A stretch of DNA of 64,000 nt, taken from positions 32,001-96,000 of the IMG/VR virus record IMGVR_UViG_3300045747_000454. One strand, written 5' to 3'. Source of the stretch: a virus. Position numbers and translations under genes: made by a program. Of the stretch, positions 6,763 through 43,641 are shown in pieces. The notes under the pieces are model-generated. The model saw only the letters and a list, made by a program, of their open reading frames with translations. It searched no databases and was not told the DNA's origin. The first letter of the stretch is position 1, and every line of letters begins with the position of its first letter.

Positions 6763-6770
6763 TATTTATC
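6763..6770 (-). promoter_or_regulatory. Late promoter (GATAAATA)
   Basis: TAAATA core upstream of 6734. Confidence 0.65.
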
Positions 6771-9700
6771 ACGGACCAGGCACCAGATAAATCTTGGCTT
6801 CGGTTAGGGATGGTAGCGTGACCTCGATGGCCCAGCTCGCCTCGTGCAGACGATAGTCGACCGGCGCAGCTTCGTGCATCAGCACGCGCGTTGCAGTCAG
6901 CTGAACTGCAGCCGTCGCACCTGGCAGCCAGACCCAGACCTGCGGAATCGGCATCGCCAGAAAGGCAGCGTAGTTCGACTCCGTCCAGAGGAAGCGAATC
7001 TGAACGACGTTGGCCGGCGATGTCACGGTCAGCGGCGTTGAGAAGCCCTCGTATGTCGTGCCGGCAGGTTGAATCAACGGGTTCGGCACGGTCTGTCCGA
7101 TTGGCAGAGTGTTCGAGTGCAGAATGGCTGTCGCCAGTCCGGTGGTGATGTTCGTGGCAACGACGAGCAGAGCGTCGCGCATCACCGAGCCGAAGGCAAC
7201 GCCGCTCTCAGGATAGCCGAAGCCGGTCAGCGATGGCAGCAGCTCTTCAGGATGCGCAGCAATATGCGCCTCAACGAGCCCAAGATAGTCGACCAGCTCA
7301 GTCTGAGCGATGTCATTGTTGACGAGGAAGCCGCTAAGCAGAATCAACGCTTGCTGCAGCTTGACTGTCTGCGCGACCGTCGGCGACGGCAGCACCGACA
7401 GCTCCTTCGCCGTCATGAACGTGCCAGTCAGCGGAACGCCAAGGTCGAAGTAGCCGTTGACGTTGTCCTCTGAGTCGTACGGCAGGTTACCGTGGCCGGC
7501 TAGAAAGCGTCCAGTCTGCGCGTCGCTCACGCCAGTCGCAGCGCTTTCTGGCTGGGCAATGTTGATGACCCAATCGTTCGTTTCAGGCATCGACACCGCT
7601 GCAGTATCGTGCAGCAGATAGTCGGTCGATGTCAGGCCAGCGCTGATGAAGAAGTTGAGCGTCTCGGTGATGTTGGCTCGCACTCTGTCGCCAGAGCCAG
7701 CGTTGTAGATGACAATGTTTGCTTCAGAGTTGAGCGGCAGATATGCAGCCGAGAAGGTCGCATCCCACGTGAAGACCGAGCCAGTCAGCGTTCCAACCAA
7801 GTCGCCAGTGCTGGTGGAGCGAACATCAATCGCCGTCTGGTCGTCAGAGAACACGGCGATTGATGTTGCGCTGTCGCGCGGTGACAGCGTCAGCGGTAGC
7901 CACGTTGTCAGCAGGTCAGTCTCTGGTGAGGTCGTGCTGAGCGCGATTGGGCTGAGACCAGTTGTCGTGTCCGTGTAGTGTGGGTCAATCGAGATTGGCG
8001 CCAGCTGAGTGATTGACGGCACTGACACGCTCAGGTCGTAGTTCAGATTGATGCCAAGCGACTCATTGAGGCGACCATCAACCAGCAGAAAGTCATTGGT
8101 GTTTGGTCGACGGTCCAGCGCATCAGGATTCAGAATGATGACGTCCTGTCCTGCCCAAGTGTCAAAGTCATCTGCCGTGATGACGAGCCGCAGCGAAACT
8201 ACGTCAGCCGCTGTGAAGTTGGCGATGAGCGTGATGTGGTCATCTGTGAAGGTGCCAATCATTGGCAGGCGTCCAACAATGCCACGGTCAGAGGCGTGAA
8301 CCGTCCAGCCGATGTTGACGCTGGCTTGCAGCACTGGCGTCAGCGTGTAGGTGCGGTTCGGCGCGTCGAAGCGCAGGCGAGTCAGGGCAAGCGTGCCAGC
8401 ACCAACAGTCCAGTGATTCAGCGAGGTCGGCTCCAGCATTGCAGAGTTGTGCAGCATCGCCGTTGGCTGCTGAATTGTGAAGCCGATCTTGCCGTTCCAG
8501 TAGGCATCGCCAACCACGGCGTTCGCCTGCCAGCCAGAGGTAGAGCCGTGAACCAGATAGGTAGGCTTGCTCGTGAAGGTCTTGAAGGTGAACTTGTCGC
8601 CAGCACCGAAGCCAGCATCGCCTGGTCGCAGCGTGAAGTGAATGCCAAGCGCCTTGAACGAGTAGCCCTCATTCGCACCAGCGCCCAGCGCGGTGAGCGT
8701 GCAGGTCGTAGTTGGAATGGCTGCGCCACCGTCGGTGCGAATGCACGCCACCGTGTAGGTCGTCGCCGAGGTGAAGGTCACCGTCCAGTTGCCTGCCGGT
8801 GCTTCGTAGAAGCCGTCGCCGTGCGGCATCAACCGTGCGCCGTAGATTGACGAGAGCCCAGCTGGCAGGTCGTCAAGGACAGCGTTCGGATTGCTGATGC
8901 CGAAGGAGAACACATCACCACCAGACACGGCAGGAACGTCGTTGATCACCACGCCGATGAATGGGCGAGTGCCCTCAACTAGCGTGAATGAGATGCCCTG
9001 CGCAGTGTTGTTGAAGGTGGCACCGACGGCAACCGTTCCAAGCGAGGTGCTGGTTGTGAAGTTGTTGTCAGAGTAGGTGACGGCAAAGGTTGATGCGTAG
9101 TAGACTGAGATCTCTGGCGGAATCGGTGCGCCGCCAATCGGCACGTCCGTTGCCACTGGGCGAGCCAGGTCAGGGATTGCTGTGATGCGCCACTTGCGCC
9201 CAGCCACGGCATTCTGCGCCATCTGTAGATTGAACAGCACCATGTCGTAGTCTGTGAAGCGAGTCGCATAGGCAAAGTTGATAGCCGTGGTTGTGCCAGC
9301 GTAGAGCGCGTCCTGATTGTCGAACGAGTCAAGGTCGTAGCCAAAGCCGAGGTCAAGGTCCTCAATCTTGGCTGGGTCGTTCTTGACGTGAATGAAGAAG
9401 CGGTCACCCTCGTGAAACGTATAGGCGGAGCCAGCGTTGATTCTGAAGCCGATGCGTCCGGCGAAGGTGATCTGATTGCCGACCGTCGCGACGCCGGTGA
9501 ACGACGGCATTCTGTCGTGCGTGACATCGAAGGTAGTGCCATCGGCGCGAGCGGTCAGCACCACGTAGCCGGTGTCGAGCAGCTGTCCAGACAGGGCGAC
9601 GTTTGACAGATACCCGTAGCGAGTCGTGGTCAGCGTTGGGCGAGTATAGGACGTTGGTGTCGTCTTGATGACGGTCCAAGTCTCGAGCGGAGCGTCTGGA

Positions 9701-11169
9701 CCAAAGACGATGCGATTGCGATTGCGAATCGTCAGCGTTGTATTCAGCGGTGGCTGTGTCAAATGGGTGATGACGAATGAGAAGTGTGGCGAGGTGAAGG
9801 TTGCACCAGTCGGAGTCGCCACAACCCAACCAATGTATCCCTCCAGCTCGCTGAAAACGGTGTAGTACGGAGCCGCTGCATCAGCGGCGATGATGCGCCA
9901 AACGTCAGCTGGATTGGCGGTCAGCGTAGCGTCGATGTTCGTGATGGTCGCGTAGGCGTTCGCGACGCTGTTGTACTCTGGGTGCCCAGGCTCACGCACA
10001 TCGAACTCGCCGTAGGCGTTGAAGTAGAATGGCGGTGAGAAGGACGCGAAGGCTTCGCTGACGTACTGCGTCGATGCGCCAGCAGAGTCGCCAACCCAGC
10101 CAAGATAGCCAGCCACCACGCTCGTGCCATCGGCAAGCAGCTGATTCAACAATGGCTCGTAGTTGCTTCGAAAGAGTGGCAACGCTGGGTCACCAGACAC
10201 ATTCGACCACGGCAGATGACTGGCGCCAGTCGCATCAACGTCAATGAGACGATGATACAGAGTGTTGTAGGCTGTGAGGCTAGTTGAAGGCAGCAGCGCC
10301 ACTCGGTCCTGCACCCAAGAGATTAGCTTGTAGCCAGTAAGCACCGGCACCGTGAAGCCGTCGGTGATTAGGCGATTGCGAAGTACGGTGTAGTCGGCGA
10401 CGGCCGGCGCAGCGTTGACGGTTGCCAGCAGCCCATTGAGCAGCGTTCGAGCATCAGTCGAGATGGTCAACGCTCCAATCGCCGTGAGCAGCGCCTTGAC
10501 CTTGGAGATGGCAGACTTCGAATTCGTCGTGTCATTGCCACGCAGTCGAGCAATCTCTGACGCGTGAGAGACAATACCGTCCTTGCGAACATCCACCCAC
10601 TGTGGCAAAAAGTGCTCACCAGCGTCGTCCGTCTGACGAACTCGAAACTGAAAGGCACCTTGACTGCGAAAGTAGTCGAGACCTTCGTACAGTGGTTCGG
10701 TGCGAGCGCGAACGCCCTCACGCTCAACCAACACGTCGGCGACACCGTCAAACGTCTGCTTCGAGTAGACGTACGGGACGGTCGACAGCTCGCTGACCTC
10801 GTCTCGACCAACCTTGATTGCGCCGACGCCTGGCAGTAGCGTGAGCGGATCCGTGTTCAGTGGCCAGCCCTTGCCAAACGGCGAGTGCAGCGCCTTCATC
10901 GGCATTGCGAGCGATGAACCAACACCACCAGAGAAGTAGTTGTACAGCCAGGTCGAGCTGACGTGCGTGAAGGTCTTCGTAGCCTCGGTGAGCTTGACGC
11001 TCATCGTGTCAGCGAACTGATACTCCTCGACGACGTCGGTCAGCTTAGAGTGATATGGCTTTGTGTCCTCGATGAAGGAAGCCAGCGCACCAACGTAGCG
11101 GGAGGACCGCGTCAGAAAGTTATTCGACTGAGCGTACCTTGCGCTGCGATTGTGGAAAGTGTTGGCCAT
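6769..11169 (-). CDS. Large baseplate-associated structural protein (1466 aa)
   Basis: N-terminal FIEDTKPYHSKL motif seen in wedge proteins; repeated beta modules ending GDxFxF; directly follows the 2946-aa gene. Confidence 0.65.
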   Translation of the reverse strand: MANTFHNRSARYAQSNNFLTRSSRYVGALASFIEDTKPYHSKLTDVVEEYQFADTMSVKLTEATKTFTHVSSTWLYNYFSGGVGSSLAMPMKALHSPFGKGWPLNTDPLTLLPGVGAIKVGRDEVSELSTVPYVYSKQTFDGVADVLVEREGVRARTEPLYEGLDYFRSQGAFQFRVRQTDDAGEHFLPQWVDVRKDGIVSHASEIARLRGNDTTNSKSAISKVKALLTAIGALTISTDARTLLNGLLATVNAAPAVADYTVLRNRLITDGFTVPVLTGYKLISWVQDRVALLPSTSLTAYNTLYHRLIDVDATGASHLPWSNVSGDPALPLFRSNYEPLLNQLLADGTSVVAGYLGWVGDSAGASTQYVSEAFASFSPPFYFNAYGEFDVREPGHPEYNSVANAYATITNIDATLTANPADVWRIIAADAAAPYYTVFSELEGYIGWVVATPTGATFTSPHFSFVITHLTQPPLNTTLTIRNRNRIVFGPDAPLETWTVIKTTPTSYTRPTLTTTRYGYLSNVALSGQLLDTGYVVLTARADGTTFDVTHDRMPSFTGVATVGNQITFAGRIGFRINAGSAYTFHEGDRFFIHVKNDPAKIEDLDLGFGYDLDSFDNQDALYAGTTTAINFAYATRFTDYDMVLFNLQMAQNAVAGRKWRITAIPDLARPVATDVPIGGAPIPPEISVYYASTFAVTYSDNNFTTSTSLGTVAVGATFNNTAQGISFTLVEGTRPFIGVVINDVPAVSGGDVFSFGISNPNAVLDDLPAGLSSIYGARLMPHGDGFYEAPAGNWTVTFTSATTYTVACIRTDGGAAIPTTTCTLTALGAGANEGYSFKALGIHFTLRPGDAGFGAGDKFTFKTFTSKPTYLVHGSTSGWQANAVVGDAYWNGKIGFTIQQPTAMLHNSAMLEPTSLNHWTVGAGTLALTRLRFDAPNRTYTLTPVLQASVNIGWTVHASDRGIVGRLPMIGTFTDDHITLIANFTAADVVSLRLVITADDFDTWAGQDVIILNPDALDRRPNTNDFLLVDGRLNESLGINLNYDLSVSVPSITQLAPISIDPHYTDTTTGLSPIALSTTSPETDLLTTWLPLTLSPRDSATSIAVFSDDQTAIDVRSTSTGDLVGTLTGSVFTWDATFSAAYLPLNSEANIVIYNAGSGDRVRANITETLNFFISAGLTSTDYLLHDTAAVSMPETNDWVINIAQPESAATGVSDAQTGRFLAGHGNLPYDSEDNVNGYFDLGVPLTGTFMTAKELSVLPSPTVAQTVKLQQALILLSGFLVNNDIAQTELVDYLGLVEAHIAAHPEELLPSLTGFGYPESGVAFGSVMRDALLVVATNITTGLATAILHSNTLPIGQTVPNPLIQPAGTTYEGFSTPLTVTSPANVVQIRFLWTESNYAAFLAMPIPQVWVWLPGATAAVQLTATRVLMHEAAPVDYRLHEASWAIEVTLPSLTEAKIYLVPGP

Positions 11170-37912: not shown

Positions 37913-38137
37913 TCAGTACACCGGATACGGACTCTTCTTCTGACCCTCAAGCCGCTCGTTCACGAATTGAATCGCGATGTCGCGCTCCAACGGCGACATG
38001 TTCAGCGCCGTCTCGTACTGAATCGAACCACGAGAGAACCAAGCGATCTCCACCGCTTGCTTGAGCAGATTACGAACGTCAACACCCATTGAGTTGATCA
38101 TGGCGGCGATTCTGCTCGTATCGCCTGACATGATCAT
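37913..38137 (-). CDS. gp51-like hub/tail assembly chaperone (possibly the -1 frameshift extension of the upstream gene)
   Basis: AWFSRGSIQYETALNMSPLERDIAIQFV resembles gp51/GT-type domains; in the -1 frame relative to the gp26-like gene. Confidence 0.65.
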   Translation of the reverse strand: MIMSGDTSRIAAMINSMGVDVRNLLKQAVEIAWFSRGSIQYETALNMSPLERDIAIQFVNERLEGQKKSPYPVY

Positions 38138-38910
38138 TCGGTGAAAAAAGAGATTGGGTTTAGCGGCAGCTCGACGGTCATGTCGCCGCCGCAGTCCTTG
38201 CACACGAGCGTTGTCGTCTGCGCCGGACCCCAGTCGTTCGTCCGATCAATCGCTTCGGTGATGCGATTGTGAAACGGCCCAGACGCAGCCCGAACCCACT
38301 CTTCGATCAGCTTCTTATCGCTGATGCCGTCGATGTCGCTGATGATAGAGGTCAAGTTGAACACAAGGTTCTTCTTGAGATCATCTGGCGTAAAGTCGGT
38401 CTTGTTGGCGTTCAGATGGAACAGCTTGATCATGTGATCGAATTTGATCGGGTGAACTCGAACGACCTGCCCGTTCGGCATCACGGCGATGAACTTCTCA
38501 TCCGCCACCGTCGGGTCGAGAGTCTTCATGTTCTGAATCGCCGTCTCGATGTTGACCAGGTACGAGTGCTCCTTGGCGCCCTCGCAGGTGTGCGTCACGC
38601 TGATCGCGAACTCAGGACCGTAGGTCACCAACCGCAGAAAGTACATGATGGCGTCGATGTCACGCCCATACAGCTCGGTCGGCTTCTTGATCTCTGGGAT
38701 GCACTCGGCAAACACGGCTTCGATTGCCTTGCCGTTGAACAGCAGATCAGGATTCTTCAGCGTGATCTCAGCGATCGCCGACAGTGGGTGAACGTGAACC
38801 TCGCCCTCAGTGCTTGACAGCTCACCGCTGGTGTAGAGAGCGCCGGCGGATGGCAGCTGAAAGGTTCGACCGGGCAGCTTGAGCTTTGCGAGCAGGGGAT
38901 TGACTTCCAT
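38134..38910 (-). CDS. Baseplate hub / tail assembly chaperone (gp26-like)
   Basis: NPLL...QLPSAG..Y, RLVTYG, HTC, CKDCG and a C-terminal NPISFF; start at ATG 38910. Confidence 0.8.
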   Translation of the reverse strand: MEVNPLLAKLKLPGRTFQLPSAGALYTSGELSSTEGEVHVHPLSAIAEITLKNPDLLFNGKAIEAVFAECIPEIKKPTELYGRDIDAIMYFLRLVTYGPEFAISVTHTCEGAKEHSYLVNIETAIQNMKTLDPTVADEKFIAVMPNGQVVRVHPIKFDHMIKLFHLNANKTDFTPDDLKKNLVFNLTSIISDIDGISDKKLIEEWVRAASGPFHNRITEAIDRTNDWGPAQTTTLVCKDCGGDMTVELPLNPISFFTE

Positions 38911-38925
38911 TGGAACTCCAGGTTG

Positions 38926-38952
38926 GATAAATAGCCTATGCCAGTATTTATC
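38926..38952. promoter_or_regulatory. Pair of opposed late promoters (GATAAATA on + at 38926, GATAAATA on - at 38945-38952)
   Basis: Two TAAATA cores on opposite strands serving the tape measure gene and the gp26-like gene. Confidence 0.65.
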
Positions 38953-38972: not shown

Positions 38973-41930
38973 ATGACCAACTCAGAACTAGAACAGTTCT
39001 CGACTGCTATCGTCAATGCTATCAAGAAGTCTGGGCTTGCCGCTTAGGCGCCCCCCAAGCGGCAAGCCACTACTGAAGACCGCAAGGAGCAAGCCGAAAA
39101 GAAGCGTGGTGCTGGTGTCATCTTCTCGACGACTACTTCGATCAAGAGCCTTGGGGCAACGGCTGACCTAGCCGCAGGTGCGCTTCGTGATCTTTCAAAG
39201 ACCGCGCTGCGATCCATCATTGGCCTGTCTCAATTCACCTCAGCGCTTGAGGACTCTTCAAAGAGGACAACGACTAAGGGCAGAATCGCTGGTCGGGTCG
39301 CGGCGAAGCCGGCCAAAGTATCGGCGGATGCTGCCATTGCACGTGCAATGGCATCACTCAAAGACCAGGAGCGTGCCGAAGAGCGTGAACGCAACGGGCG
39401 TGAGAGTCAGCGCATTTTGGCTGAACAAGCCAGAGCGCGAAAGGAAAAGGCTCGCCAAGACCGTGTTCAGAAGGCTCGCGTCACGCCAACTGGAAAGCCA
39501 GAGCGTTCAGAATTTGTCGGGCCAATCAAGCCAGAAGAAATCATTGATACCTCTGACAAGCTCAAGCCCATCGATCTCATCGACACAAAGAAGCAGCTTG
39601 AGTGGAAGACTGGTCCAGAGTTCATCATGGACAAATACCTTAAGCCGATTGCTGTCGACATCGACAAAAAGCTTAAGGCACGAACAGCAGCATTTGCGAA
39701 GTTCGAGGGAGATGAGGATCTAGCCAATGCTCGGCGTCGCGATGCAATTGATCACAACGTCCTGCAAATTGGCGCCTTCGCGACCAAGTCGATGGGCATT
39801 CTTTGGCGCACAACGCTTGATTCACTGAACATTATGTTTGGCACGCTTGCACAGCGTGGCTACGGTACATCAGACTCATTCAGCACTCTTGCCGTGAACT
39901 CAGCACGCGCTGGCATGAGCATTCAAGAGTACACAGAGATGATGGACAGCAGCATGGCTGTTGTCTCGCGCTCGTCAAGCTTCGCTGACTTCGACAGTAA
40001 GCTGAAAGTTGGAACTAACGCGCTGAAGGAGTTCGGCATTGCCGGACCAGAGGCGACCAAGGCCGTTGCTAGCTTGATGACATCATCGACGCAGCTTGGC
40101 ATTCCACAGGACCAGCTGAAGGAGAGTATTGAAGCTCAGATGACGGCGTTCAGACAGCTGCAGAAGACTACTGGCATTACGATCACGGACTTCGCTCGAC
40201 TGTCTGCCGAGGTTAGCTCGTATGAGTCGGTTCAGACGGAGCTTGCCGCCCTTGATCCGGCGCAGCGTGATGCTCGTCGTGCTGCGCTGACTCAGCAGTA
40301 CGCGTACGCCAAGTCGCTTAACATCTCAGAGCGCGCTCAAGCTAGCTTCACACAAGCCATCATTGAGCAGCGCCGCTCAACAGTCAAGACTCGCTACAAT
40401 CAAGCTGGTCGTCTGATGCAAGCCGGCGGTATGGTTGGCATGGGTGCTGATCAGATCGAAGAGATGCGTAAGCTCTCGCTCAATCGTTACAAGAGCGATG
40501 ATGAGCAGAAGCGCTACATGGATTTACTTGGCAAGCTCGGCACTGGCATGGAGCAGGTTCAGCAGCAAGGTGGTCCAGGCTCGCAGTACCAGATGGACAC
40601 AATGAAGGAGCTGCTTGACTCGAACGGCATGACCTCGGCAATGGACGCCGCCATGGCTATCAAGCTTGGCAAGGAATCTGGAAAGACTGGCAATGCCGAC
40701 ATGTCGCGCAGCGTTAGCGAGCTCGATAAGAATCTGTCTGGCTTGTTCACGTGGGTAAAGGGTTGGGGTGCTAACCCCATTGGCGCAGCTGCCATCTCTA
40801 TAACGTCTGCTTTCGTCGCTCTCGCATCGTCAATCAAATTCGGCCTCATTGAAGTGGCGCCGATGCTCGGCACGATAATTGGCGACAGAGCTGGAACAAT
40901 CATTGCGCGAATGATGTCTGGGACGGCGCATGGCTTTGGGTCAGACTCTAAAAATCCTATCCCGTCTGATACTGGCTCAGACCCTACAAAGCCAAAGATG
41001 AGCAAGTGGGTCAAGGGTGCTGCTATTGCTGGCGGCGTTCTTGAAGCCGGCATGGCAGGCTATGGGGCCTACAGCACCTACTCAGACATGAACAAGAAGG
41101 AAGCTGAGGAGGGTGGTCCGACCAAGGAGACGAAGGAGAAGAAGGCTGAGGCTGTAGGCAATGGCGTGCTTGGTGGGCTTGGTGGTGTAGCTCTGGCAAT
41201 AGCACCATTCCTCGGGCCGGCAGCGCCATTCGTAGCTGGATTCGGACTTGTCGCCTCAGCGCTCAATATGTTTGGCGCAGGCGGCGCCGTTGGCAAGCTG
41301 TTCGTCAGTAATGAGACGGCCGTCGAGAAGAACACTCGCGAGACAAACAAGCTGACCAAGGAGATGAACGAGGCTCGTGCGGCTCAAGCGAATGACGATA
41401 ATGTCATGGACGCTTCAGCGCTGGCTGGGTTGCCAACTAGTGCAGTCAGAGCCGGCATTGCAGGTTCAATCGCTTCAGCAGATGAGGTTGCCAAGGCGCG
41501 ACCAGTCGATCCTGCCGTCATAGCTCAGAACCTCAAGGACACACAAGACAATGTAAGCGAGATGCTGGAGGCGCAGGCTCGAGTCGATGCCGCGGCGGCC
41601 TATGGAAAGCCAACCAAGACAACGCCAACGTCGATTGCCGGCTCATCTATCGCTCTGCCAACGAGCGTAGCACCAAATCGCGTCAATCCTACGACCGTAA
41701 ATACAGCTACGGACGAGGCGGCAGAACGGAAGACATCACAACTGCCAGCAGTGCTGAAGCGCGATGCTGTTGATCAGGTGGCGATTCTGCAGAAGCAGAC
41801 TGACATTATGCAGCAGCACACAGATCTTATGCAGAAGAGCATTGATGCGACGAATGATCTTACTCGCACTCTTGCAACACGCTCAACTCAGCCAAGCACT
41901 GAAAACCTCTACCGTCGAGCTACTGGCTAA
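38973..41930 (+). CDS. Tape measure protein (gp29-like) with an in-frame TAG at codon 25 (39045-39047)
   Basis: Long helical Ala/Gly-rich protein with GAAIAGG/GLGGVAL hydrophobic stretches, between chaperone and portal; ATG 38973 follows a late promoter and is in frame (125 codons) with the 860-aa ORF at 39348. Confidence 0.7.
41696..41703 (+). promoter_or_regulatory. Late promoter (CGTAAATA) inside the tape measure gene, likely for portal
   Basis: TAAATA core about 250 nt upstream of the portal start. Confidence 0.45.
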
Positions 41931-41952: not shown

Positions 41953-43641
41953 TTGAGCACACTATCAAACTACTGGCGAATCATCACTCCGGCATCGCGC
42001 AAGCAGATGTACACGACGCTCGCCACCGACGCGTACGACCCGAGAACGACTGACGTCTCGTCGCTCTCGTCCGTGCAGTGGTACTCACAGGTTCTGCGTG
42101 GTCCTGGATCGCGCTCGCAGATGTACAAGCAGTACGACGCGATGGACGGCGACATTGACATCTGCCGCAGCCTCGACATCATCGCCGAGGAAATGTCAGG
42201 CAAGAACGACAAGACCGACCTGCCCTTCGAGATCAGCTACGAGAAGGAGGACAATCAAGATGTCTCCGACTCTACGGCAGTCACGCTCCGTCAGGCAGTT
42301 CGTCAGTGGTCAGAGCTGCAGGATTTGAAGCGTCGCATCTACACGATTGGTCGAACGATGATCAAGTACGGCGACTGCTTCTTTCAGAAGATGTCTGACA
42401 CGAAGAAATGGAAGTACATCGACCCGTCGCTCGTCTACGGTATCGAGGTCAACGAGTTCGGCGACAAGATTGCCTATCACGTAAAGCGTCCGCACGCCGG
42501 CATGGGCAGCCCATTCGCTCCTCGTCAGGAGCAGCTCGACGTGATTCCGGCTGACGCCATGATTCACTTCACGATGTGCGACGACATGGGCGACTCCGCT
42601 CCGTTCGGTCAGTCGGTCCTTCGTCCAGTCTTTCGTGTCTATCGTCAGCTGGCGATGATCGAGGACGCCGTCATCATCTACCGTATCGTTCGCGCTCCAG
42701 AGCGCCGCGTCTTCTACGTCGACACCGGCAACATGCCACCACAGCGCGTCAAGCTGTACCTCGAGCAGATCAAGAACGAGATTCGTCAGAAGCGCTCGCC
42801 AACCTCGAATCAAGGCGGCAAGGACACCGTTGACGGTGCCTACGACCCGATGTCGATTCAGGAGGACATGTTCTTCCCTGTCAACGCTGCTGGTCGTAGC
42901 TCACGCGTTGAAACTCTGCCAGGCGGCACCGAAGACTTCGGCACGAACCTGCTCAAGTACTTTCAGGACAAGGTTTTCCGTGGTCTGCGCATTCCAACCT
43001 CCTACATGTCAGGCGGCGACGGGCAGGGCGCTCAGTACAACGACGGCAAGGTCGGCATCGCGTACATCGAAGAAATGCGCTTCGCCAACTTCGTCATGCG
43101 TCTTCAGGATCGTCTTGAGGAGCACTTTGACAGCGAGTTTAAGACCTATCTGAAGGTCGTCGGTCTGAAGATCGACGAGGAGATCTTCAAGCTCAAGCTG
43201 CCTGATCCATCTAACTTTGCGCTGTATCGTCAGGCTGCGCTCGACGCCGACCTGATTGGCTCGTTCAACAACATCGAAGCGACGAAGTATCTGTCGCGTC
43301 GCTTCATTCTCAAGCGCTACCTTGGTCTTAACGACGACGAGATTCAGATGAACGAGGTCATGATCAAGGAAGAGCGTGGCATCACCGAAGCATCAGACAT
43401 TCCGTCCATTCAGCAGATCTATGACCCAACGGTCTACGAGAACCGTGAGAGCCGGACCGTTGATGCTGGTGAGGGTGAAATCGCTGGTGGTCTGGGCGGC
43501 GAGGAGGACATTGGCATGGAGCCAGGCGGCTTCATGCCTGACCCAATGGCAGGCGGCGATCTAGGTGCTGAAGAACCATTGGCTCCTGAAGCTCCAGCCC
43601 CAGCAGGCGGCGCGGAACCGGCCGCAGAACCAGCGGTTTAA
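41953..43641 (+). CDS. Portal protein (T4 gp20-like)
   Basis: QLAMIEDAVIIYRIVRAPERRVFYVDTGNMP, EDMFFP, VETLPGG, YFQDKVFRGLRIPTSY. Confidence 0.96.
   Translation: MSTLSNYWRIITPASRKQMYTTLATDAYDPRTTDVSSLSSVQWYSQVLRGPGSRSQMYKQYDAMDGDIDICRSLDIIAEEMSGKNDKTDLPFEISYEKEDNQDVSDSTAVTLRQAVRQWSELQDLKRRIYTIGRTMIKYGDCFFQKMSDTKKWKYIDPSLVYGIEVNEFGDKIAYHVKRPHAGMGSPFAPRQEQLDVIPADAMIHFTMCDDMGDSAPFGQSVLRPVFRVYRQLAMIEDAVIIYRIVRAPERRVFYVDTGNMPPQRVKLYLEQIKNEIRQKRSPTSNQGGKDTVDGAYDPMSIQEDMFFPVNAAGRSSRVETLPGGTEDFGTNLLKYFQDKVFRGLRIPTSYMSGGDGQGAQYNDGKVGIAYIEEMRFANFVMRLQDRLEEHFDSEFKTYLKVVGLKIDEEIFKLKLPDPSNFALYRQAALDADLIGSFNNIEATKYLSRRFILKRYLGLNDDEIQMNEVMIKEERGITEASDIPSIQQIYDPTVYENRESRTVDAGEGEIAGGLGGEEDIGMEPGGFMPDPMAGGDLGAEEPLAPEAPAPAGGAEPAAEPAV

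Follow-up and report, generated by a model that had tools for sequence, protein, structure and literature searches.

A tape-measure-like gene of a giant T4-like phage carries an in-frame amber codon inside a perfect hairpin

How could a phage tail gene be expressed when an amber stop codon stands in its reading frame 24 codons after the start? This question was raised by a locus in IMG/VR virus record IMGVR_UViG_3300045747_000454. The window, meaning the whole stretch of DNA that was analyzed, comprises 64,000 nucleotides (nt) and corresponds to bases 32001-96000 of one contig of 116,033 base pairs (bp) from this JGI/IMG virus record. The contig has a GC content of 57%, and its source is a giant T4-like phage from a metagenome. 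On the plus strand of the window an ATG at 38973-38975 is followed by 24 sense codons and a TAG at 39045-39047. The same frame is then open from 39048 to a stop codon at 41928-41930. A first-pass annotation, made from the letters alone, had described an ATG at 38973, the TAG, 100 codons without a start codon and an open reading frame (ORF) of 860 amino acids (aa). This layout was exact on re-reading. The annotation had proposed that the TAG is part of a programmed recoding site.

Positions 38973-41930 constitute a single late gene of approximately 985 codons with one in-frame amber codon, because the sequences before and after the TAG both show homology to N-termini within one protein family. 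An exhaustive HMMER search with the read-through translation identified 202 relatives at E ≤ 0.001, mostly 900-1100 aa in length. The N-termini of 38 full-length homologues out of these 202 were compared. Thirty-five of the 38 had a Met followed by a shared pattern of a short amphipathic helix, a Gly-rich linker and an I-x-A-T-x-x-x-L segment. The first 24 codons of the gene (38973-39044, plus strand) were assigned to this conserved N-terminal helix by homology and coding score. Their residues fit the family pattern and are identical to the N-terminus of P0003, the closest homologue in this segment, at 11 of 22 positions. Against a hidden Markov model (HMM) of 105 family N-termini they scored 10.0 bits, which was reached by one of 2000 shuffles. 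The 100 codons that follow the TAG (39048-39347, plus strand) are homologous to family residues ~30-130. In the same test the 100 residues scored 25.6 bits compared to 10.7 bits for the best shuffle (0/1000 reached the score), and local BLASTP matched them to the N-terminus of P0001 with E values of 9e-06 and 4e-05. By codon usage, this was the one frame with a positive coding score, before the TAG as well as after it. The 860-aa ORF at 39348-41930 (plus strand), which is the gene call of JGI/IMG, encodes the body of the tape-measure-like protein. The earlier view that the 24 codons, the 100 codons and the 860-aa ORF are one gene was thus borne out by homology throughout to a tape-measure-like family.

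The gene is preceded by a T4-type late-promoter core, ATAAATA, at 38927-38933 on the plus strand. It lies 40 nt 5' of the ATG at 38973, as the first-pass annotation had noted. This motif occurs 14 times in the window compared to 0.5 expected, and the sites that were checked lie upstream of ORFs in matching orientation. Relatives of the phage have the same motif 35-60 nt before the start codons of the homologous genes. The AUG at 38973 is the first usable start codon after the late promoter. ATG, GTG and TTG are all missing from the 100 codons at 39048-39347, and no plausible start was found after the TAG, nor any near-cognate codon with a good Shine-Dalgarno (SD) sequence.

These observations bear on the proposal that the tail protein starts past the stop, either by non-canonical reinitiation near the TAG or at Met 39348. 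The 24-codon ORF would then be a leader peptide, and its stop in the hairpin would couple or throttle translation. The gene caller of the source chose Met 39348. Weak SD-like motifs (GGTG) precede an in-frame ATC at 39120 by 6 and 12 nt, and the region N-terminal to the conserved domain is shorter in some family members. However, the 100 codons lack any ATG, GTG or TTG and are nevertheless homologous to the family and coding by score. The ATG at 39348 has no SD sequence and is covered by a 9-bp palindromic hairpin (39332-39353, plus strand) centered on CACGTG, which argues against Met 39348 as the natural start. In every relative examined, the 24-residue segment is also fused to the rest of the protein. 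A start downstream of the stop is therefore quite unlikely, and the gene model should extend to 38973. The 860-aa call of the source is 125 codons too short.

The hairpin around the stop was examined at the level of nucleotides and codons. It is a perfect 12-bp hairpin at 39034-39068 on the plus strand, with arms at 39034-39045 and 39057-39068 and an 11-nt loop at 39046-39056. The first-pass annotation had reported a perfect 12-bp inverted repeat with flanking Ala codons, and both the coordinates and the codons agreed exactly. Nine of the 12 pairs are G-C, and G-U pairs and mismatches are absent. The final base of the stem, T39045, doubles as the first base of the TAG and lengthens the stem from 11 bp to 12 bp. 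The codons around the stop are GCC GCT TAG GCG, and an in-frame GCC at 39066-39068 ends the 3' arm. The 116-kb contig contains three distinct perfect hairpins of at least 12 bp compared to 0-1 in each of 10 shuffles. The local fold had a predicted energy of -30.8 kcal/mol (z = -2.6).

The hairpin uses rare codons, among them GGG (8% of Gly codons), CCC (5% of Pro codons), CGG (8% of Arg codons) and CTT (17% of Leu codons). The loop contains a C6 run at 39051-39056 (plus strand), formed by two rare CCC Pro codons. It is the sole C6 run of the 116-kb contig, which has no G6 run, and not one of the 58 remaining Pro-Pro pairs is written CCC CCC. For codon adaptation, the six codons that follow the TAG rank among the bottom 0.6% of six-codon windows. 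When synonymous codons were sampled for the encoded peptide using the codon usage of the contig, a 12-bp stem appeared in 1 of 20,000 samples. The hairpin is not a by-product of the encoded peptide. The rare codons and the sampling result indicate that the nucleotide sequence was either selected as such or arose recently by a process unlike normal evolution as coding sequence.

Known types of hairpin were considered. No intrinsic terminator was predicted at 39034-39068 and no Rfam family matched. A repeated mobile palindrome was rejected as no similar hairpin was present elsewhere in the contig or in IMG/VR, where a search with the exact hairpin gave no match. A conserved 5' hairpin of the gene family was rejected as well; only one relative, L005, has a hairpin in this part of the gene, and it is at a different position. 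L005, which encodes P0001, contains a perfect 11-bp hairpin with a 16-nt loop (L005:4806-4843) and without a stop. It lies at +118 to +155 of the tape-measure-like gene of L005, 57 nt further 3' than the hairpin at 39034-39068. Two such hairpins among eight homologous 5' regions are more than expected. The L005 case was not taken as conservation.

Among the 113 ORFs of the contig this was the sole long coding region without a start codon that lies behind an in-frame stop. The other 112 ORFs are intact, including those of 2946 aa and 1466 aa. Genome-wide reassignment of TAG was rejected, as ordinary genes are terminated by TAG and no second interrupted gene was present. A homopolymer indel or frameshift was also considered. 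A run of C7 in place of C6 would join the ORF that starts at ATG 39016 to the downstream frame. This was rejected because the peptide encoded in frame 0 ahead of the TAG shows family homology, which places both sides in a single frame. Nothing supported pyrrolysine or a PYLIS-like element.

If the base call is right and the phage viable, ribosomes may have some way past the UAG. The reading that we tentatively favor is that of a real amber stop, tolerated through low-level decoding by a suppressor tRNA, by readthrough or by a one-codon hop between Ala codons. On the late transcript ribosomes would initiate at AUG 38973; most would terminate after 24 residues, while a small fraction would decode through the UAG and yield the full-length protein. 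A suppressor tRNA could be supplied from the unsequenced two thirds of what would be a tRNA-rich jumbo phage genome. The UAG could instead be read by a near-cognate tRNA, or a peptidyl-tRNA-Ala could hop one codon, from GCU to the GCG just past the stop. A tape measure protein is needed in only a few copies per tail, as with T4 gp29 and lambda gpH, so a low efficiency would be enough. The flanks of the stop are both intact and homologous to the family, and this was counted in favor of a real, tolerated stop. An error or a dominant lethal allele is not the default explanation because the other 112 ORFs are intact and the contig otherwise looks like a clean consensus. Should the stop prove real and be decoded, the locus would be a natural example, in a T4-like jumbo phage, of an essential structural gene with a dosage set by passage of a stop.

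Several observations weigh against low-level passage of a real stop. TAG serves as a normal stop elsewhere in the contig: it ends 7 of the 92 long ORFs (TGA ends 58 and TAA 25; GC3, the GC content of third codon positions, is 70% over the whole contig), for example just before the start of the next gene at genome position 18411. Readthrough with a 3' stimulator involves a structure a few nucleotides downstream of the stop which is free to form, and here the stop is inside the hairpin. Judging from the ribosome footprint, the 5' arm would be inside the ribosome once the UAG occupies the A site, and the hairpin would therefore not act as a classical downstream readthrough stimulator. No tRNA genes, and hence no CUA tRNA, were found in the contig, which represents about 32% of the genome, and there was no CUA anticodon among the tRNAs scanned in three relatives. 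The sequence is also a single metagenome assembly with no second copy in the places searched. These were the JGI metagenomes (searched with the N-terminal 125 residues), IMG/VR (with the exact hairpin) and GTDB genomes (with the back-translated sequence), none of which gave a second copy of the N-terminal region. GenBank phages gave no match by blastn and tblastn, and IMG/VR searched with the single protein gave none.

The comparison with relatives points the same way. The DNA of 17 distinct relatives was examined, seven found via the tape-measure-like protein and the others via the adjacent portal gene (63-76% identical). In 17 of 17 the N-terminus is uninterrupted behind the same promoter pair, and the 38 N-termini compared above are likewise continuous. 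No hairpin was found at the equivalent place in the DNA of these 17 loci. The relatives have a sense codon in place of the TAG, usually within a Gly-Gly motif; the amber codon itself, codon 25 of the gene (39045-39047, plus strand), is at or beside the conserved Gly-Gly linker motif of the family. The closest homologue is only 38-46% identical, even where the portal is 75% identical. The tape-measure-like protein thus evolves fast, and no near relative shows the ancestral state. The programmed recoding proposed by the first-pass annotation found no support in this check of conservation. Every relative had a sense codon and no hairpin there, which the annotation had itself named as a refuting outcome, although even the closest of them is at the distance just given. 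A recoding interpretation is possible and unproven, and the relatives lend it no support.

The occurrence of the stop and hairpin in this contig alone, compared to all relatives examined, also bears on a second explanation. The TAG could have arisen very recently as a nonsense mutation, or it could be a mistake in the consensus or in base calling at a hairpin that sequences poorly, with no recoding and no functional tape measure. This is a real possibility. The change could have been a point mutation that struck the top of a stem already 11 bp long. It could also have been a short template-switch (quasi-palindrome) event that rendered the repeat perfect, with the ancestral Gly-Gly codons overwritten in the process. 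The stem has no G-U pair or mismatch, as would be expected of a fresh templated event, and the base that takes the stem from 11 to 12 bp is precisely the T of the TAG. The abnormal codon usage across the hairpin and the missing Gly-Gly motif fit an overwritten segment. Frame and homology are intact on both sides, so the lesion would be young. The single metagenome assembly, with no independent copy, is consistent with an error. Template switching at quasi-palindromes is a mutation hotspot, and sequence-specific Illumina errors cluster at inverted repeats and GGC motifs.

On the other side, this tail gene is an essential one, and a lethal allele of it would not be expected to become the dominant assembled consensus of a lytic phage population. 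The contig contains no other stop-interrupted coding region, which indicates a low general error rate, and a templated copy of one arm leaves the rare CCC CCC codons of the loop unexplained. Template-switch mutations at quasi-palindromes are reportedly described by the Ripley model and by work of the Lovett laboratory. The locus resembles such mutations in its perfect short inverted repeat, the clustered changes that look non-coding and an accidental stop. They need an ancestral imperfect repeat, however, whereas here the closest homologue is only 38-46% identical. If the TAG arose by templated mutation or error, a hairpin around a stop can be a mutation scar and not a recoding signal.

Whether a suppressor tRNA could account for low-level decoding depends on the remainder of the genome. 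The contig has no end repeats and its CheckV completeness was 32% at 116 kb, corresponding to a genome of roughly 350 kb. The source is probably a jumbo phage of this size. Relatives in the clade encode 20-44 tRNA genes in clusters on contigs of 183-332 kb from jumbo phages, with portals that are 65-70% identical. These jumbo-phage relatives are G003, G004 and G005 (the records of L019, L018 and L016; loci L040, L045 and L050). The first-pass annotation had pointed to a CUA-anticodon tRNA, and the search for it could be carried out on the contig, that is, on ~32% of the genome, where there was none. A suppressor in the missing part of the genome is possible because the contig is only this fraction of the genome and the relatives carry 20-44 tRNAs. 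One tRNA in each of G003 and G004 was given a two-base anticodon ("tg") by ARAGORN, with an odd anticodon loop.

Suppressor-tRNA recoding has been described for phage late genes, and recoded stops were proposed to appear once a suppressor is acquired (bioRxiv 10.1101/2021.08.26.457843). The present locus is similar in that its in-frame TAG interrupts a structural gene expressed late, in a large phage whose clade is rich in tRNAs. It differs from the phages of that study in several ways. They have many in-frame stops, whereas a single case was found here in 113 ORFs. A recoded stop would no longer end genes, whereas TAG still ends 7 of the 92 long ORFs. The GC content is 57% and not low, and no suppressor tRNA was present in the 32% of the genome that is available.

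The codons next to the stop allow another route. The GCU before the stop and the GCG after it are both readable by tRNA-Ala(UGC), of which the relatives encode two copies. The arrangement GCU UAG GCG ... GCC formally allows a hop. To this extent the recoding proposal of the first-pass annotation stood, and the programming of such an event found no support. Weiss, Dunn, Atkins and Gesteland (1987) reportedly observed +6 hops in E. coli between synonymous codons that flank a stop. The likeness lies in a sense codon, UAG and a codon for the same tRNA; the hop stays in frame and its product is one residue shorter than that of readthrough. The known cases differ in being low-level events in reporter constructs, not in natural essential genes, and in having no hairpin, while the present case comes from sequence alone.

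A further proposal is that the stop at the top of a hairpin between synonymous Ala codons is an undescribed device, passed by an Ala hop or short bypass, or else is the first codon to be recoded. We consider this somewhat unlikely. Such a device would throttle an abundant late mRNA to a few tape-measure copies per tail. In the alternative form a jumbo T4-like phage would have just acquired an amber suppressor, and the TAG would mark an incipient code change in a GC-rich, non-gut phage. If the stop is real and is decoded, the locus would offer either a natural signal for hopping or bypassing that is new and distinct from gene 60, or a snapshot of how recoding of a stop codon begins.

The first-pass annotation had also drawn a parallel to the bypass in T4 gene 60. 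Peptidyl-tRNA-Ala would take off from GCU at 39042-39044, the hairpin would fold and the ribosome would land on the in-frame GCC at 39066-39068, skipping 21 nt. The take-off and landing codons match and one tRNA-Ala(GGC) can read both. The UAG at 39045-39047 directly follows the potential take-off codon, and the skipped codons are among the worst-adapted 0.6% of windows and contain the sole C6 run, as for untranslated sequence. However, the gap is in frame and holds one stop only, so nothing requires a bypass. None of the triplets GAG, GGA, AGG and GGG is present 5-7 nt before the landing codon (39057-39065 holds no such triplet), and an out-of-frame GCC at 39050-39052 would be a premature landing site. 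The take-off codon is within the 5' arm, which starts 8 nt upstream of it, and the stop is at the junction of stem and loop; gene 60 does not have an arm that reaches upstream in this way. Nothing in the nascent chain, which is only 24 residues long, corresponds to the peptide signal of gene 60. The adjacent genes are those for the hub and portal, with no homing endonuclease among them, and the arrangement is not conserved in relatives. A bypass of the gene 60 type is very unlikely, and the parallel failed on the in-frame gap, the missing mini-SD and the position that the 5' arm would have inside the ribosome when the UAG is in the A site.

T4 gene 60 and its homologous cassettes (bioRxiv 10.1101/2022.08.31.505936; PMC5462505) share with the present locus a T4-like phage, a UAG after the take-off codon in a stem-loop and a matching landing codon. 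The gap of gene 60 is 50 nt compared to 21 nt in frame here. The mini-SD, the AU-rich 3' part of the gap and the nascent-peptide signal of gene 60 have no equivalent here, nor does its mobile-element context. The stem geometry is different, and there is neither sequence homology nor conservation. The terminase inserts of Streptomyces phage Hau3 (PMC10732093) are another likeness, consisting of a short lineage-specific block in an essential late gene with RNA structure that draws the resume site near. In Hau3 the inserts measure 10 nt, break the frame and start with the rare sense codon UUA, whereas the block here is in frame and starts with a stop.

The identity of the product as a tape measure protein is plausible, judged indirectly from family matches and gene position. 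The window protein itself matched no Pfam or PHROG family. Among 28 aligned family members 13 matched a tail-associated-lysin PHROG, and seven tape-measure PHROGs were each matched by one or two of the 28. There were also glycine-zipper Pfam matches, coiled-coil matches and a weak match to the solved tape measure protein 9ki1_g (E 0.0046). The gene sits between a baseplate-hub gene and a portal gene.

The divergent neighbor at 38134-38910 on the minus strand encodes a T4 gp26-like baseplate-hub protein. It was predicted from PF12322 (E 2.5e-05; 24.5 bits, exactly at the cut-off) and also matched phrog_150, baseplate hub, with an E value of 1.4e-07. Directly 3' of the tape-measure-like gene is the T4-type portal (gp20) gene at 41953-43641 on the plus strand (PF07230, E 2.8e-89), and a prohead protease gene is also found downstream. 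The hub gene has its own divergent late-promoter core, an ATAAATA motif at 38945-38951 on the minus strand. The two divergent ATAAATA cores are 11 nt apart (38927-38951), and relatives have the motif pair at the same place. A 9-bp inverted repeat is made up by the two cores in relatives L001, L002 and L009, where it spans roughly positions -62 to -35 relative to the start codons. This bidirectional late control region between the hub and tape-measure-like genes is kept across the clade.

Two other perfect hairpins were noted in the contig. The longest, at 7822-7867, has a 15-bp stem and a 16-nt loop and is within the 1466-aa minus-strand ORF at 6769-11169. A perfect 13-bp hairpin with a 5-nt loop is present at genome C1:18752-18782, which is 13,219-13,249 bases before the first base of the window. 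It directly follows a small ORF that comes after a TAG-terminated gene (genome 17038-18411) and is probably a terminator.

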